A stretch of DNA of 7,758 nucleotides. It comes from Naegleria gruberi (Eukaryota). Position 1 is the stretch's first letter. Every line of letters begins with the position of its first letter. Shown one piece after another: positions 1 through 7,574 of this stretch. Location of the stretch: NCBI GenBank assembly GCA_000004985.1, contig GG739110.1, one strand, 5' to 3'. The notes under the pieces were generated by a model, which saw only the letters and a list, made by a program, of their open reading frames with translations, searched no databases and was not told the origin of the DNA. The translations under genes were made by a program, and so were the position numbers.

Positions 1-625
1 CTGGTGATTTCGTATATTCAATCTGTTCCTCAACAAATTGTTTCGCATAATTGTCATTCTCAATCTCACCAATAACTTTCATCATGTCATATTTTCCCAA
101 AGAGTCAAAATCATACGGCATTATTCTAAAACAGAGAATGTTATCTTTCCATTCATAGGTAAACTTTTCCCTCTCCTCTACAAAATTTTCATTCGAAAGG
201 TGAGTATAAAATAGTCCAATATTAATTTCCTCAACTTCCTCCACACGTCCCCAATCATCATTATATTCTCTGATGTGATAATCATCACACGGATCCAAAT
301 ATCCAAGTTCTGTAGTTCTACCCCTCACAGAATTAAATATCATTCTTCTTTCAAATAAATTCTTTTCATTATCAACCTTTTCTTCATCATCATCAACTTG
401 ATTATCCTCTACATAATCTTCATCATCATCTTCATCATCGGAATCTTCCCGTTCCATATAAAATTCATGAGTATTTTCATGAGCGTCGGTTTTTATCCAC
501 TTTTTAATTTGTGAATTATATGAATGAAGCAGTAGAAGCTCATTACATGTTATTTCTTCGTACATGAATGATGCTGGTGCGGAGGCAACTGTGTCAGAGG
601 CGTCATTATTGGTATCACACGGCAT
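1..625 (-). CDS. 5' part of a protein-coding gene (start codon at 623-625 on the minus strand; open through position 2 and continuing beyond the window). The N-terminal 208 aa include a poly-Asp/Glu tract; family not recognised.
   Basis: I checked every minus-strand codon by hand and found 208 sense codons with no stop from 625 down to 2. In ~27% GC DNA the chance expectation is roughly one stop per 12 codons. The ATG at 625 is the first in-frame ATG after an upstream in-frame stop (plus-strand 698-700 'tca' = TGA). It is preceded on the minus strand by A10 (plus-strand T-run 626-635). GC rises to ~35-40% inside the ORF versus ~23% immediately upstream. The translation begins MPCDTNNDASDTVASAPASFMYEEITCNELLLLHSYNSQIKKWIKTDAHENTHEFYMEREDSDDEDDDEDYVEDNQVDDDEEKVDNEKNLFERRMIFNSVRGRTTELGYLDPCDDYHIREYNDDWGRVEEVEEINIGLFYTHLSNENFVEEREKFTYEWKDNILCFRIMPYDFDSLGKYDMMKVIGEIENDNYAKQFVEEQIEYTKSP and continues past the edge. 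It is not in the supplied ORF track, presumably because it has no stop inside the window. Internal introns cannot be excluded. Confidence 0.65.
   Translation of the reverse strand, partial: MPCDTNNDASDTVASAPASFMYEEITCNELLLLHSYNSQIKKWIKTDAHENTHEFYMEREDSDDEDDDEDYVEDNQVDDDEEKVDNEKNLFERRMIFNSVRGRTTELGYLDPCDDYHIREYNDDWGRVEEVEEINIGLFYTHLSNENFVEEREKFTYEWKDNILCFRIMPYDFDSLGKYDMMKVIGEIENDNYAKQFVEEQIEYTKSP
383..440 (-). repeat. Imperfect trinucleotide (GAT/GAA)n tract on the coding strand (ATC/TTC on plus) encoding the acidic run DSDDEDDDEDYVEDNQVDDDEEK
   Basis: Plus strand reads ttcatcatcatcaacttgattatcctctacataatcttcatcatcatcttcatcatcggaatc. It lies in frame within the minus-strand ORF. It is a coding microsatellite-like tract and could vary in length. 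Confidence 0.6.
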
Positions 626-726
626 TTTTTTTTTTGTAAATTGTGAAATTGAGAGAGCAATAGGCCTGACTGATCTTATCAAATATTTTAATATGTTTCA
701 TTGTTTTGATTCAATTTTTTCAATTG

Positions 727-2065: not shown

Positions 2066-5000
2066 NNNNNNNNNNNNNNNNNNNNNNNNNNNNNNNNNNN
2101 NNNNNNNNNNNNNNNNNNNNNNNNNNNNNNNNNNNNNNNNNNNNNNNNNNNNNNNNNNNNNNNNNNNNNNNNNNNNNNNNNNNNNNNNNNNNNNNNNNNN
2201 NNNNNNNNNNNNNNNNNNNNNNNNNNNNNNNNNNNNNNNNNNNNNNNNNNNNNNNNNNNNNNNNNNNNNNNNNNNNNNNNNNNNNNNNNNNNNNNNNNNN
2301 NNNNNNNNNNNNNNNNNNNNNNNNNNNNNNNNNNNNNNNNNNNNNNNNNNNNNNNNNNNNNNNNNNNNNNNNNNNNNNNNNNNNNNNNNNNNNNNNNNNN
2401 NNNNNNNNNNNNNNNNNNNNNNNNNNNNNNNNNNNNNNNNNNNNNNNNNNNNNNNNNNNNNNNNNNNNNNNNNNNNNNNNNNNNNNNNNNNNNNNNNNNN
2501 NNNNNNNNNNNNNNNNNNNNNNNNNNNNNNNNNNNNNNNNNNNNNNNNNNNNNNNNNNNNNNNNNNNNNNNNNNNNNNNNNNNNNNNNNNNNNNNNNNNN
2601 NNNNNNNNNNNNNNNNNNNNNNNNNNNNNNNNNNNNNNNNNNNNNNNNNNNNNNNNNNNNNNNNNNNNNNNNNNNNNNNNNNNNNNNNNNNNNNNNNNNN
2701 NNNNNNNNNNNNNNNNNNNNNNNNNNNNNNNNNNNNNNNNNNNNNNNNNNNNNNNNNNNNNNNNNNNNNNNNNNNNNNNNNNNNNNNNNNNNNNNNNNNN
2801 NNNNNNNNNNNNNNNNNNNNNNNNNNNNNNNNNNNNNNNNNNNNNNNNNNNNNNNNNNNNNNNNNNNNNNNNNNNNNNNNNNNNNNNNNNNNNNNNNNNN
2901 NNNNNNNNNNNNNNNNNNNNNNNNNNNNNNNNNNNNNNNNNNNNNNNNNNNNNNNNNNNNNNNNNNNNNNNNNNNNNNNNNNNNNNNNNNNNNNNNNNNN
3001 NNNNNNNNNNNNNNNNNNNNNNNNNNNNNNNNNNNNNNNNNNNNNNNNNNNNNNNNNNNNNNNNNNNNNNNNNNNNNNNNNNNNNNNNNNNNNNNNNNNN
3101 NNNNNNNNNNNNNNNNNNNNNNNNNNNNNNNNNNNNNNNNNNNNNNNNNNNNNNNNNNNNNNNNNNNNNNNNNNNNNNNNNNNNNNNNNNNNNNNNNNNN
3201 NNNNNNNNNNNNNNNNNNNNNNNNNNNNNNNNNNNNNNNNNNNNNNNNNNNNNNNNNNNNNNNNNNNNNNNNNNNNNNNNNNNNNNNNNNNNNNNNNNNN
3301 NNNNNNNNNNNNNNNNNNNNNNNNNNNNNNNNNNNNNNNNNNNNNNNNNNNNNNNNNNNNNNNNNNNNNNNNNNNNNNNNNNNNNNNNNNNNNNNNNNNN
3401 NNNNNNNNNNNNNNNNNNNNNNNNNNNNNNNNNNNNNNNNNNNNNNNNNNNNNNNNNNNNNNNNNNNNNNNNNNNNNNNNNNNNNNNNNNNNNNNNNNNN
3501 NNNNNNNNNNNNNNNNNNNNNNNNNNNNNNNNNNNNNNNNNNNNNNNNNNNNNNNNNNNNNNNNNNNNNNNNNNNNNNNNNNNNNNNNNNNNNNNNNNNN
3601 NNNNNNNNNNNNNNNNNNNNNNNNNNNNNNNNNNNNNNNNNNNNNNNNNNNNNNNNNNNNNNNNNNNNNNNNNNNNNNNNNNNNNNNNNNNNNNNNNNNN
3701 NNNNNNNNNNNNNNNNNNNNNNNNNNNNNNNNNNNNNNNNNNNNNNNNNNNNNNNNNNNNNNNNNNNNNNNNNNNNNNNNNNNNNNNNNNNNNNNNNNNN
3801 NNNNNNNNNNNNNNNNNNNNNNNNNNNNNNNNNNNNNNNNNNNNNNNNNNNNNNNNNNNNNNNNNNNNNNNNNNNNNNNNNNNNNNNNNNNNNNNNNNNN
3901 NNNNNNNNNNNNNNNNNNNNNNNNNNNNNNNNNNNNNNNNNNNNNNNNNNNNNNNNNNNNNNNNNNNNNNNNNNNNNNNNNNNNNNNNNNNNNNNNNNNN
4001 NNNNNNNNNNNNNNNNNNNNNNNNNNNNNNNNNNNNNNNNNNNNNNNNNNNNNNNNNNNNNNNNNNNNNNNNNNNNNNNNNNNNNNNNNNNNNNNNNNNN
4101 NNNNNNNNNNNNNNNNNNNNNNNNNNNNNNNNNNNNNNNNNNNNNNNNNNNNNNNNNNNNNNNNNNNNNNNNNNNNNNNNNNNNNNNNNNNNNNNNNNNN
4201 NNNNNNNNNNNNNNNNNNNNNNNNNNNNNNNNNNNNNNNNNNNNNNNNNNNNNNNNNNNNNNNNNNNNNNNNNNNNNNNNNNNNNNNNNNNNNNNNNNNN
4301 NNNNNNNNNNNNNNNNNNNNNNNNNNNNNNNNNNNNNNNNNNNNNNNNNNNNNNNNNNNNNNNNNNNNNNNNNNNNNNNNNNNNNNNNNNNNNNNNNNNN
4401 NNNNNNNNNNNNNNNNNNNNNNNNNNNNNNNNNNNNNNNNNNNNNNNNNNNNNNNNNNNNNNNNNNNNNNNNNNNNNNNNNNNNNNNNNNNNNNNNNNNN
4501 NNNNNNNNNNNNNNNNNNNNNNNNNNNNNNNNNNNNNNNNNNNNNNNNNNNNNNNNNNNNNNNNNNNNNNNNNNNNNNNNNNNNNNNNNNNNNNNNNNNN
4601 NNNNNNNNNNNNNNNNNNNNNNNNNNNNNNNNNNNNNNNNNNNNNNNNNNNNNNNNNNNNNNNNNNNNNNNNNNNNNNNNNNNNNNNNNNNNNNNNNNNN
4701 NNNNNNNNNNNNNNNNNNNNNNNNNNNNNNNNNNNNNNNNNNNNNNNNNNNNNNNNNNNNNNNNNNNNNNNNNNNNNNNNNNNNNNNNNNNNNNNNNNNN
4801 NNNNNNNNNNNNNNNNNNNNNNNNNNNNNNNNNNNNNNNNNNNNNNNNNNNNNNNNNNNNNNNNNNNNNNNNNNNNNNNNNNNNNNNNNNNNNNNNNNNN
4901 NNNNNNNNNNNNNNNNNNNNNNNNNNNNNNNNNNNNNNNNNNNNNNNNNNNNNNNNNNNNNNNNNNNNNNNNNNNNNNNNNNNNNNNNNNNNNNNNNNNN

Positions 5001-6213
5001 NNNNNNNNNNNNNNNNNNNNNNNNNNNNNNNNNNNNNNNNNNNNNNNNNNNNNNNNNNNNNNNNNNNNNNNNNNNNNNNNNNNNNNNNNNNNNNNNNNNN
5101 NNNNNNNNNNNNNNNNNNNNNNNNNNNNNNNNNNNNNNNNNNNNNNNNNNNNNNNNNNNNNNNNNNNNNNNNNNNNNNNNNNNNNNNNNNNNNNNNNNNN
5201 NNNNNNNNNNNNNNNNNNNNNNNNNNNNNNNNNNNNNNNNNNNNNNNNNNNNNNNNNNNNNNNNNNNNNNNNNNNNNNNNNNNNNNNNNNNNNNNNNNNN
5301 NNNNNNNNNNNNNNNNNNNNNNNNNNNNNNNNNNNNNNNNNNNNNNNNNNNNNNNNNNNNNNNNNNNNNNNNNNNNNNNNNNNNNNNNNNNNNNNNNNNN
5401 NNNNNNNNNNNNNNNNNNNNNNNNNNNNNNNNNNNNNNNNNNNNNNNNNNNNNNNNNNNNNNNNNNNNNNNNNNNNNNNNNNNNNNNNNNNNNNNNNNNN
5501 NNNNNNNNNNNNNNNNNNNNNNNNNNNNNNNNNNNNNNNNNNNNNNNNNNNNNNNNNNNNNNNNNNNNNNNNNNNNNNNNNNNNNNNNNNNNNNNNNNNN
5601 NNNNNNNNNNNNNNNNNNNNNNNNNNNNNNNNNNNNNNNNNNNNNNNNNNNNNNNNNNNNNNNNNNNNNNNNNNNNNNNNNNNNNNNNNNNNNNNNNNNN
5701 NNNNNNNNNNNNNNNNNNNNNNNNNNNNNNNNNNNNNNNNNNNNNNNNNNNNNNNNNNNNNNNNNNNNNNNNNNNNNNNNNNNNNNNNNNNNNNNNNNNN
5801 NNNNNNNNNNNNNNNNNNNNNNNNNNNNNNNNNNNNNNNNNNNNNNNNNNNNNNNNNNNNNNNNNNNNNNNNNNNNNNNNNNNNNNNNNNNNNNNNNNNN
5901 NNNNNNNNNNNNNNNNNNNNNNNNNNNNNNNNNNNNNNNNNNNNNNNNNNNNNNNNNNNNNNNNNNNNNNNNNNNNNNNNNNNNNNNNNNNNNNNNNNNN
6001 NNNNNNNNNNNNNNNNNNNNNNNNNNNNNNNNNNNNNNNNNNNNNNNNNNNNNNNNNNNNNNNNNNNNNNNNNNNNNNNNNNNNNNNNNNNNNNNNNNNN
6101 NNNNNNNNNNNNNNNNNNNNNNNNNNNNNNNNNNNNNNNNNNNNNNNNNNNNNNNNNNNNNNNNNNNNNNNNNNNNNNNNNNNNNNNNNNNNNNNNNNNN
6201 NNNNNNNNNNNNN
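2066..6213. other. Assembly gap: 4148 consecutive N (53% of window)
   Basis: An uninterrupted run of n. The non-round length suggests a size-estimated scaffold gap. All ORF-track entries spanning it are strings of X with no information. Confidence 0.99.
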
Positions 6214-6586
6214 TTGGAGAAAGAATAAAAACTTTTGAATCACCAATAACACTTGTTCTACATTGAAGACTCAAGGAAGTCAAGTAGAAACCATTTGGAC
6301 AAGTTGTCTTGATAAAAAAGTCCTTGTAATCATATGAAGAAACTGGACAAGTGCCTGCACATGTGCAATCACCACCAACTGGACACAATGTACAATCTTC
6401 TTGGAGGGATCTGGAGTTTGGATTGGTAGAGTTGAATAGGTTAGTTTCAACATTAGTTTCGAATGAAGGAACGAGGGTTCCATCCATGTAGGTCGTAGTA
6501 GAATAGACAATATTCTCACAAGTGACTGAAGCAAAGAGCAACAGAGAAACAGCAAGCAGAATGAATAGGCAAACCTTGTTGACCAT
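6214..6586 (-). CDS. First coding exon (3'-truncated by the gap) of a secreted cysteine-rich protein: signal peptide + NST sequon + Cys-rich module
   Basis: The minus-strand frame is open from 6634 down to the gap edge at 6214. Every codon from 6586 down to 6215 was checked by hand. The translation from the ATG at 6584-6586 is MVNKVCLFILLAVSLLLFASVTC|ENIVYSTTTYMDGTLVPSFETNVETNLFNSTNPNSRSLQEDCTLCPVGGDCTCAGTCPVSSYDYKDFFIKTTCPNGFYLTSLSLQCRTSVIGDSKVFILSP... The first 23 aa form a textbook signal peptide (n-region MVNK, hydrophobic core VCLFILLAVSLLLFA, c-region SVTC). The mature part has an N-x-T sequon and seven Cys with spacing C-x2-C-x5-C-x-C-x3-C-x19-C-x13-C. The ATG at 6586 is preceded by A8 on the minus strand (plus-strand T 6587-6594), matching the start context of the other two genes. 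In-frame upstream ATGs at 6604 (MSLQKK...) and 6634 (MKEIPISNDR...) are alternatives. The downstream end is unknown because the gene runs into the gap. Confidence 0.65.
6518..6586 (-). other. Predicted signal peptide-coding segment (23 codons) of the secreted Cys-rich protein
   Basis: The n/h/c tripartite structure is read from the translation, with predicted cleavage after SVTC. Exact cleavage would need SignalP. Confidence 0.55.
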
Positions 6587-6935
6587 TTTTTTTTGAAGTG
6601 ACATCCTGTCATTTGAAATAGGTATTTCTTTCATTGTTGACTTTTGGAGCCAGTTAATGATATTTTAGAAAAAGTGCACAGGTGATTTAATCAACCGAAT
6701 ATTGTGCTAACATTACGAATTAGGCAGGTAGTAAAAGAGACATTGGTATGAGAAAAACAAGAGTACCACCTTAAGCAAGGATTTTTTGGAAATGAGCTTT
6801 TCGCACATATTTCACATTAATTTTTTATCTCATTTCTTTAGTATCTCTATAGGGGTGGTGAAGACTGTAGTTCAAAAATTGGGAAAAGTTGAACATGTTT
6901 GTAAAATCAAATGTTACAAAGAATTGTAAAAAAAA
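6587..6935. promoter_or_regulatory. Shared upstream region of a divergently transcribed gene pair (secreted Cys-rich gene on minus, TLDc gene on plus); candidate bidirectional promoter
   Basis: The two start codons, 6586 on minus and 6936 on plus, point away from each other and are separated by ~350 bp of 25-30% GC sequence. There is no convincing canonical TATA box. If 6604 or 6634 is the true start of the minus gene, the spacer shrinks to ~300 bp. Confidence 0.35.
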
Positions 6936-7574
6936 ATGGAATTAAATGACAGTTGTGTTTCCCTTTCTCTCGATGCAAATTTTAAATCAAGCCTTTTGAA
7001 AGATCATTTAAAAACAAAACTAGATAGTCAAATCATCACTCATTCTCAATATTTACAATTATTTCGCATGTCTGCAGAATTAAATAATTGTACAATGTTA
7101 ATGCCAAAGCTTCTTTTCAGAGCCACTAGAGATGGTTTCCGAAGTGCTGATTTTCATAGACATTGTGATGGAAAATTGAAAACTGTTACAATCATCAAAT
7201 CAGACCAGGATGATTTATTTGGTTTTTATGCTACAAGAGATTTGGCTTCGAATTGTGATGATTTTGAGAAGGGAATTCTTATAAGGGATGATGAATCGTT
7301 TACTTTCAGATTAGAGAATGACAAGTGTTACACCTTTCATTTAGAAGAGGATAAGGCAGAATGTCCACTTGTTACCTATGATAGTACATTGTTACTTTCA
7401 TATGCTTATTGTTTTTGGATTTCTGATCAGTCAGATGTGAAATATTCATCGAGTCAAGAGGATGTTGAGTTGCACATTCTTCCTCAGAATAGATTACCTG
7501 GTAAGAAGCAGAGATATTTCAGCGAAGATGATTTTCTGGTTAAGGAAATTGAAGTGTTCCATATTTTAGACTAA
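6936..7574 (+). CDS. TLDc-domain protein (TLDc-only, 212 aa, apparently intronless; complete ORF with stop TAA at 7572-7574)
   Basis: The ATG at 6936 is preceded by A8 and an in-frame stop (taa, 6927-6929). The translation carries the hallmark TLDc motifs. The N-terminal motif is ...SQIITHSQYLQLF...PKLLFRATRDGFRSADFHRHCDGKLKTVTIIKS...LFGFYAT..., matching the OXR1/NCOA7/TBC1D24-type consensus S.IL...Q...L...LP...LLY..S.DGfS...FH..CD.kgpTl.vi+...iFGg. The C-terminal motif is ...YFSEDDFLVKEIEVFHI, matching the consensus F.v.diEVw. The TLDc domain spans roughly residues 30-212 (nt ~7023-7571). GC is ~36% versus ~25% in the flanks. A donor-like CCTG|GTAAGA at ~7498 is read through in frame into the conserved C-terminal motif, so no intron is called there. 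Confidence 0.8.
   Translation: MELNDSCVSLSLDANFKSSLLKDHLKTKLDSQIITHSQYLQLFRMSAELNNCTMLMPKLLFRATRDGFRSADFHRHCDGKLKTVTIIKSDQDDLFGFYATRDLASNCDDFEKGILIRDDESFTFRLENDKCYTFHLEEDKAECPLVTYDSTLLLSYAYCFWISDQSDVKYSSSQEDVELHILPQNRLPGKKQRYFSEDDFLVKEIEVFHILD

Follow-up and report, generated by a model that had tools for sequence, protein, structure and literature searches.

The window analysed here, 7758 bp in length, is a complete scaffold of Naegleria gruberi, a heterolobosean amoeboflagellate. Its two sequenced parts, of 2065 and 1545 bases, flank a run of 4148 N (2066–6213). The Sanger assembly of this species comprises 40.9 Mb in 1,977 scaffolds with a GC content of 35% (Table 1, PMC9928731). The preliminary description had placed the sequence in an AT-rich invertebrate genome; this assignment was abandoned, as the TLDc-domain protein encoded on the same scaffold is 100% identical to an N. 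gruberi protein. Three open reading frames (ORFs) stand out by their length: a cysteine-rich frame that enters the gap from its right-hand side on the minus strand, the TLDc-domain gene on the plus strand and an acidic frame that runs off the scaffold start. None of the three contains an in-frame TAA or TAG, for which reason a ciliate-type genetic code was rejected.

On the minus strand, the Cys-rich frame stays open over 140 codons from 6634 to 6214, where it meets the N-run at 6213. In-frame ATG codons are located at 6634, 6604 and 6586. Translation from ATG 6586 gives MVNKVCLFILLAVSLLLFASVTCENIVYSTTTYMDGTLVPSFETNVETNLFNSTNPNSRSLQEDCTLCPVGGDCTCAGTCPVSSYDYKDFFIKTTCPNGFYLTSLSLQCRTSVIGDSKVFILSP, 124 residues up to the gap, which opens with MVNKVCLFILLAVSLLLFASVTC followed by ENIVY and includes the string EDCTLCPVGGDCTCAGTCP; the peptide ENIVYSTTTYMDGTLVPSFETNVETNLFNSTNPNSR likewise lies within this predicted Cys-rich product. 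The gap-truncated coding region proposed in the preliminary description was thus recovered, with the frame open to the gap and a translation from 6586 identical to the quoted one. An overlapping minus-strand ORF of 110 aa (6280–6612) was rejected, its frame scoring worse on codon usage.

Several properties of this frame resemble those of coding DNA. When the non-N sequence was shuffled 2000 times by mononucleotides, 0.35% of the shuffles contained an open frame of 140 codons or more (P=0.0035; mean longest frame 83 codons); 140 codons is itself a minimum length, since the real frame is cut by the gap. The GC content of the ORF amounts to 38.7%, compared to 26.8% in the non-coding DNA of the window and 33–34% in the two other ORFs. 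With a codon-usage log-likelihood of +0.044 bits per codon, based on a reference of only 420 codons from the two neighbouring ORFs, the frame ranks at the top of all six (others −0.03 to −0.43). A comparable value was reached by the TLDc gene under cross-validation (+0.073), and both are far above the non-coding controls (−0.48 ± 0.12, maximum −0.30). The fraction of T in the third codon position is 0.47, similar to the values of 0.46 and 0.43 in the neighbouring genes. GC1 is lower than GC2, which is atypical for coding DNA and is explained by the Cys/Thr/Ser/Pro content of the product. Frame length, codon usage, third-position T, raised GC and a run of eight A directly before ATG 6586 represent five independent lines of evidence, on the basis of which 6214–6586 (minus strand) is probably the 5′ coding end of a genuine, unannotated N. 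gruberi gene; this grade is given jointly with the reading of its product as a secreted or surface Cys-rich glycoprotein developed below.

The A-run (A8, 6587–6594, minus strand) is taken as translation-start context. Only five A-runs of at least seven are present in the window, both strands counted, and the three longest of them (9, 9 and 11, including the A of the ATG) are located exactly at ATG 6586 (minus), ATG 6936 (plus) and ATG 625 (minus), i.e. at the starts of the three longest ORFs. Since A8 precedes ATG 6586 as comparable runs do in both other genes, 6586 was picked as the most likely translation start on sequence grounds. The two upstream in-frame ATGs, 6634 and 6604, would add a possible N-terminal extension, MKEIPISNDRMSLQKK (6595–6634, minus strand). 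Its GC content is 23–37% and its ATGs carry no A-run; owing to this non-coding-like composition and the missing run, the extension is presumed to be 5′ UTR. Runs of 8–10 A directly before the ATG were thus observed in three out of three genes of the window (625–635, 6586–6594 and 6928–6936). Such a run may be a general start-site signature of N. gruberi, of use in picking start codons, a suggestion drawn from n=3 within this window.

A cleavable eukaryotic signal peptide typically begins with a short positive n-region, followed by a hydrophobic h-region of approximately 7–15 residues; its c-region is polar and, by the (−3,−1) rule, has small or neutral amino acids at positions −3 and −1 of the cleavage site. 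Residues 1–23 of the product (MVNKVCLFILLAVSLLLFASVTC; 6518–6586, minus strand) are a predicted signal sequence of this kind, with the n-region MVNK (+1), a hydrophobic core V5–V21 and a c-region V-T-C ahead of a Glu. The Kyte-Doolittle maximum of this segment is 3.2 for an 11-residue window and 2.7 for a 19-residue window; elsewhere in the fragment it does not exceed 1.6. AlphaFold run without an alignment places a helix at residues 2–19 with a pLDDT of 66–78, the sole confident part of the fragment. In a rule-based check, V21-T22-C23/E24 is in line with the (−3,−1) rule; signal peptidase might instead cut after A19. The core of 17 residues exceeds the usual length in cleaved signal peptides and is of borderline length for a signal anchor. 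Hydropathy thus agrees with the signal-like N-terminus of the preliminary description, with cleavage as a prediction and a core longer than usual. Whether the segment is cleaved or serves as an anchor, the region that follows is predicted to be luminal or extracellular.

Residues 24–64 (6395–6517, minus strand) form a linker free of Cys and rich in Thr, Asn and Ser (T7 N6 S5 E4 of 41 residues). It carries the single N-x-S/T sequon of the fragment, N52-S53-T54 at 6425–6433, in agreement with the NST site given previously. R59 is the only basic residue in the mature part before the Cys module, and no K/R-R pro-peptide site is present. The subsequent Cys cluster comprises residues 65–109 (6260–6394, minus strand) with the spacing C-x2-C-x5-C-x-C-x3-C-x15-C-x12-C. 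The compact module that had been described is accordingly present, and only its last two spacings had to be corrected from x19 and x13 to x15 and x12. Cys residues occur at positions 6, 23, 65, 68, 74, 76, 80, 96 and 109 of the product. The cluster contains three C-P-[VN]-[GS] motifs (C68, C80, C96) and the string TTCPNGFY. At least seven Cys in a 45-residue window were found in 0.67% of 20000 ORF shuffles (P=0.0067, a post-hoc test). AlphaFold2 without an alignment gave no confident fold, the mean pLDDT being 41.0 over the whole fragment of 124 residues and 40.0 when the Cys region (65 residues) was modelled by itself.

Residues 110–124, RTSVIGDSKVFILSP (6214–6259, minus strand), extend up to the gap edge and may still be coding or already intronic. 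The last ~37 nt before the gap have a GC content of 23%, similar to non-coding DNA, and GT dinucleotides are found at 6252, 6250, 6243 and 6232; an intron could begin within 6214–6259. The odd number of seven Cys in the visible mature part, together with a frame that is still open at the gap, implies that the module or the protein continues into the gap, as far as can be judged from the sequence. The gap itself (2066–6213, 4148 N) conceals the remainder of the Cys-rich gene including its 3′ end. On its left flank (1765–2065) the GC content is 25%, stops occur in all six frames and codon-usage scores range from −0.42 to −0.75; given stops in all frames and non-coding scores, the 3′ end of the gene is placed inside the gap. 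The length of a gap in a Sanger scaffold is an estimate. The ~1400 further codons mentioned in the preliminary description correspond to the N-run read as X and stand as a rough upper bound at best.

The neighbouring TLDc-domain gene (6936–7574, plus strand) is a 212-codon ORF with a Pfam TLD match at E=1.1e-14. It is 100% identical, over 159 annotated residues, to XP_002668358.1 / NAEGRDRAFT_76729, a "predicted protein [Naegleria gruberi]". The 159 aa of XP_002668358.1 begin with MLMPK, which corresponds to residue 54 of the 212-codon ORF. The first ATG of the ORF, 6936, directly follows an A8 run of the kind seen at the other starts, and the match to Pfam TLDc sets in as early as residue 30; for both reasons the deposited gene model is probably truncated at the N-terminus. 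The Cys-rich and the TLDc genes are divergent with 349 bp between ATG 6586 (minus) and ATG 6936 (plus). The upstream region that they share, 6595–6927 without the two A8 runs before each ATG, is presumably a promoter region common to the pair.

At the other end of the scaffold, the ORF scan revealed an acidic frame of at least 208 codons running off the scaffold start (2–625, minus strand). It contains a long acidic tract, DSDDEDDDEDYVEDNQVDDDEE, which is seen at the DNA level as a TCA/TCTTCATCATCA tandem repeat at 381–439. No Pfam domain was found in it, and the exact fragment is absent from protein records; presumably it is another gene cut by the scaffold end. The following 1.4 kb (626–2065) have a GC content of 24–30% and contain (AT)n microsatellites, e.g. 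at 1282–1296. A search of this stretch gave no ORF above 73 codons, no tRNA and no Rfam match. It is unusually long as intergenic DNA for a gene-dense genome, and may hold UTRs or introns of genes outside the view. Rfam, tRNA and tandem-repeat scans of the whole window returned nothing bearing on the Cys-rich gene. In a search of 5.8 billion protein clusters, the TLDc protein had a single other relative at E≤0.001 (P0002, 33% identity), from which all three genes of the scaffold look fast-evolving or lineage-restricted.

To search for relatives of the Cys-rich product, two large protein libraries were used. A word-indexed search of the 5.8 billion clusters gave one candidate sharing words, zero scoring matches and no self-match. 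The missing self-match places the gene outside the annotated N. gruberi proteome; the product is not contained in the NCBI, UniRef and EukProt protein sets of N. gruberi, and its exact sequence is not on record. An exhaustive phmmer search of 1.84 billion representatives returned 0 matches at E≤0.001. At that library size only matches above ~40–45 bits pass, and a paralogue match of 25–30 bits would be invisible. This search would therefore have revealed a clear orthologue from N. fowleri or N. lovaniensis, but not a weak paralogue with nothing but the Cys scaffold in common. Among JGI metagenome contigs, a back-translated pattern scan for a contig spanning the gap gave 192 pattern matches, 0 of which were confirmed.

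Pfam-A was searched by hmmscan at E≤10 with the fragment and two sub-fragments, and no Cys-rich family was matched at a setting where HMMER filters may hide matches with E above ~0.1. The sole Pfam match, AbfB, reached E 0.08–0.15 and 12.6–13.5 bits compared to a cut-off of 22.8 and was judged to be due to chance. A PDB sequence search at E≤10 found no relatives and only chance matches to Cys-rich chains (a ferredoxin domain and PHD fingers). In the literature, we found no described Naegleria family fitting the product. That the module could not be assigned to a named family in the preliminary description is in accordance with Pfam, the PDB and both protein libraries, all of which are without a relative, and a lineage-restricted origin is consistent with these negative homology searches. 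The further suggestion that this is the most likely place in the window for something undescribed holds only weakly, in the sense of a gene that is unannotated and has no detectable relatives.

Several known families invite comparison. The furin-like and growth-factor-receptor repeats (PF00757, PF15913, PF14843; IPR009030), such as FU1-FU2 of R-spondin, are similar in being extracellular and following a signal peptide, both as predicted here, and in their dense Cys, and they share C-x2-C and C-P-x-G-[FY]-[FY] motifs with the fragment. In contrast, the C-x-C-x3-C core and the x15/x12 spacings of the fragment do not match the FU pattern. Only about one Cys unit is visible, in the 45 residues ahead of the gap edge at 6213, which is too little for tandem repetition to be seen. 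In a single pairwise BLASTP comparison with the FU repeats of human R-spondin-1, for which we used what we take to be the correct sequence, three segments of 7–17 residues were aligned with E=0.11–0.35, all of them placing TTCPNGFY at the FU positions C-[PK]-x-G-[FYLS]. Pfam profiles of Furin-like, Furin-like_2, GF_recep_IV and GCC2_GCC3 (PF00757, PF15913, PF14843, PF07699) gave no match at E≤10. Judged from the sequence, the C-P-x-G-[FY]-Y likeness to these repeats is a motif-level resemblance, which is not significant and no evidence of membership. Of the likeness to laminin-EGF, TNFR and furin-like repeats that the preliminary description had noted without calling it diagnostic, the furin-like motifs persist; profile matches to laminin-EGF and TNFR were not obtained.

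The signature of EGF domains is C-x-C-x2-G-[FYW]-x-G-x2-C, and TNFR domains show the spacings C-x2-C-x2-C. EGF, laminin-EGF and TNFR domains are extracellular disulfide-rich modules with a core resembling C-x-C-x-G-x-C, as in the fragment, whereas the EGF signature and the TNFR spacings, in the form given above, are missing from it. EGF, Laminin_EGF and TNFR_c6 had no Pfam match at E≤10, and no PDB chain of these families was found at E≤10. Antistasin domains comprise about 26–30 residues with about six Cys. Proteins with antistasin-like Cys repeats (IPR004094 / PF02822) are reported from Naegleria and Willaertia in numbers of 5–17 per species, mostly bearing a signal peptide (PMC12482156). 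They are found in the same genus as the present product and, as predicted for it, are mostly secreted; their short Cys-rich repeats have fewer Cys than the animal archetype. An antistasin-like identity was not supported: Pfam Antistasin was not matched at E≤10, and neither protein search returned any Naegleria protein. Protist CXXC-rich surface proteins (Giardia VSP, PF03302; ciliate surface antigens, PF01508) are alike in the order of a signal peptide, predicted in the fragment, and an extracellular region with C-x2-C, in protists that live freely or as parasites. The fragment differs in showing a single C-x2-C and no Pfam match, and any tandem array or C-terminal anchor would be concealed by the gap.

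Taken together, the product is most likely a secreted or cell-surface glycoprotein whose N-terminus is the visible part, and we regard this whole reading, including the genuine gene that encodes it, as probable. The N-terminal hydrophobic sequence would direct the nascent chain co-translationally to the ER, where signal peptidase may cleave near residue 23, the first 19–23 residues being the putative signal peptide. N52 would be N-glycosylated, the Thr/Ser-rich linker may be O-glycosylated, and the Cys module would be oxidised to disulfides; the glycoprotein would leave the cell or reach its surface. Should the gap be estimated correctly, up to roughly 1,300–1,400 residues of the protein could lie in it. 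Cleavage, glycosylation, disulfide bonds and an extracellular location are thus predictions from sequence features. It is possible, if doubtful, that the Cys module is the first unit of a Naegleria-restricted extracellular domain family, unrelated to FU, EGF, TNFR and antistasin, and carried by a large surface or secreted protein in the gap.

Other readings have to be weighed against this one. A refinement of it would see in the fragment the N-terminal part of a large receptor or adhesin at the cell surface, with a very divergent furin-like repeat of the R-spondin, EGFR/insulin-receptor CR or GCC2_GCC3 kind. The three C-P-[VN]-[GS] motifs with TTCPNGFY, the placement of that string on the FU motif in all three BLASTP segments and the room for up to ~4 kb more coding sequence in the gap point in this direction. 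Nevertheless we consider it rather unlikely, as no Furin-like, Furin-like_2, GF_recep_IV, GCC2_GCC3, Laminin_EGF, EGF, TNFR_c6, VSP or Antistasin profile was matched in Pfam at E≤10 and the PDB yielded no chain from these kinds of family at E≤10, the BLASTP matches to the assumed R-spondin sequence are confined to 7–17 residues at E=0.11–0.35, and the C-x-C-x3-C core falls outside the FU spacing. We consider it quite unlikely that the hydrophobic segment remains as an uncleaved type II signal anchor, perhaps after translation from 6634 or 6604; the product would then sit in the membrane, its short N-terminus facing the cytosol and its Cys-rich domain the lumen or the exterior. This reading would account for the 17-residue core and the 19-residue Kyte-Doolittle mean of 2.7, and the two upstream ATGs, both with A at −3, would supply a charged N-terminus of 6 or 16 additional residues. 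However, 6586 is marked by the A8 run that the two other genes also show, the GC content of the extension is as low as in non-coding DNA, and the c-region, small or neutral at −3 and −1 with an acidic residue next to it, looks as expected for cleavage.

That the frame is open by chance, or belongs to a decaying pseudogene without a functional product, appears very unlikely. It is unannotated and without homologues, and hence without any in which purifying selection could be seen, gap makes up more than half of the tiny scaffold, and the last 37 nt are of non-coding composition. Against this stand the length of the open frame (P=0.0035), frame-specific codon usage and third-position bias like those of the neighbouring genes, the gene-start A-run and the coherent architecture of signal, linker and Cys module. 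The missing annotation would find an explanation in the routine dropping by gene callers of models that enter gaps. Highly improbable, finally, is a short lineage-restricted secreted peptide with an antimicrobial or signalling role that ends just inside the gap, as the preliminary description had suggested. A signal sequence with a Cys cluster and no homologues would suit such a peptide; the suggestion is disfavoured by the frame still open at the gap after 124 residues, the 41-residue linker ahead of the Cys cluster, the odd number of seven Cys in the visible mature part, and the lack of a K/R-R pro-peptide processing site before the Cys module, where R59 is the only basic residue.

With the secreted or surface glycoprotein as the preferred reading, the Cys-rich gene is new to the annotation but ordinary in kind: a signal sequence followed by a Cys-rich extracellular module in a protist. 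The visible 124 residues bear on no long-standing question. The significance is limited: the N. gruberi annotation gains a gene model that was missing, and genes adjacent to gaps are shown to have been dropped from the annotated set. Should the complete Cys-rich protein, whether secreted or at the surface, prove specific to Naegleria, it might be of interest for studies on the contact of the amoeba with its environment or its prey, as well as for antigen work in the genus of N. fowleri.
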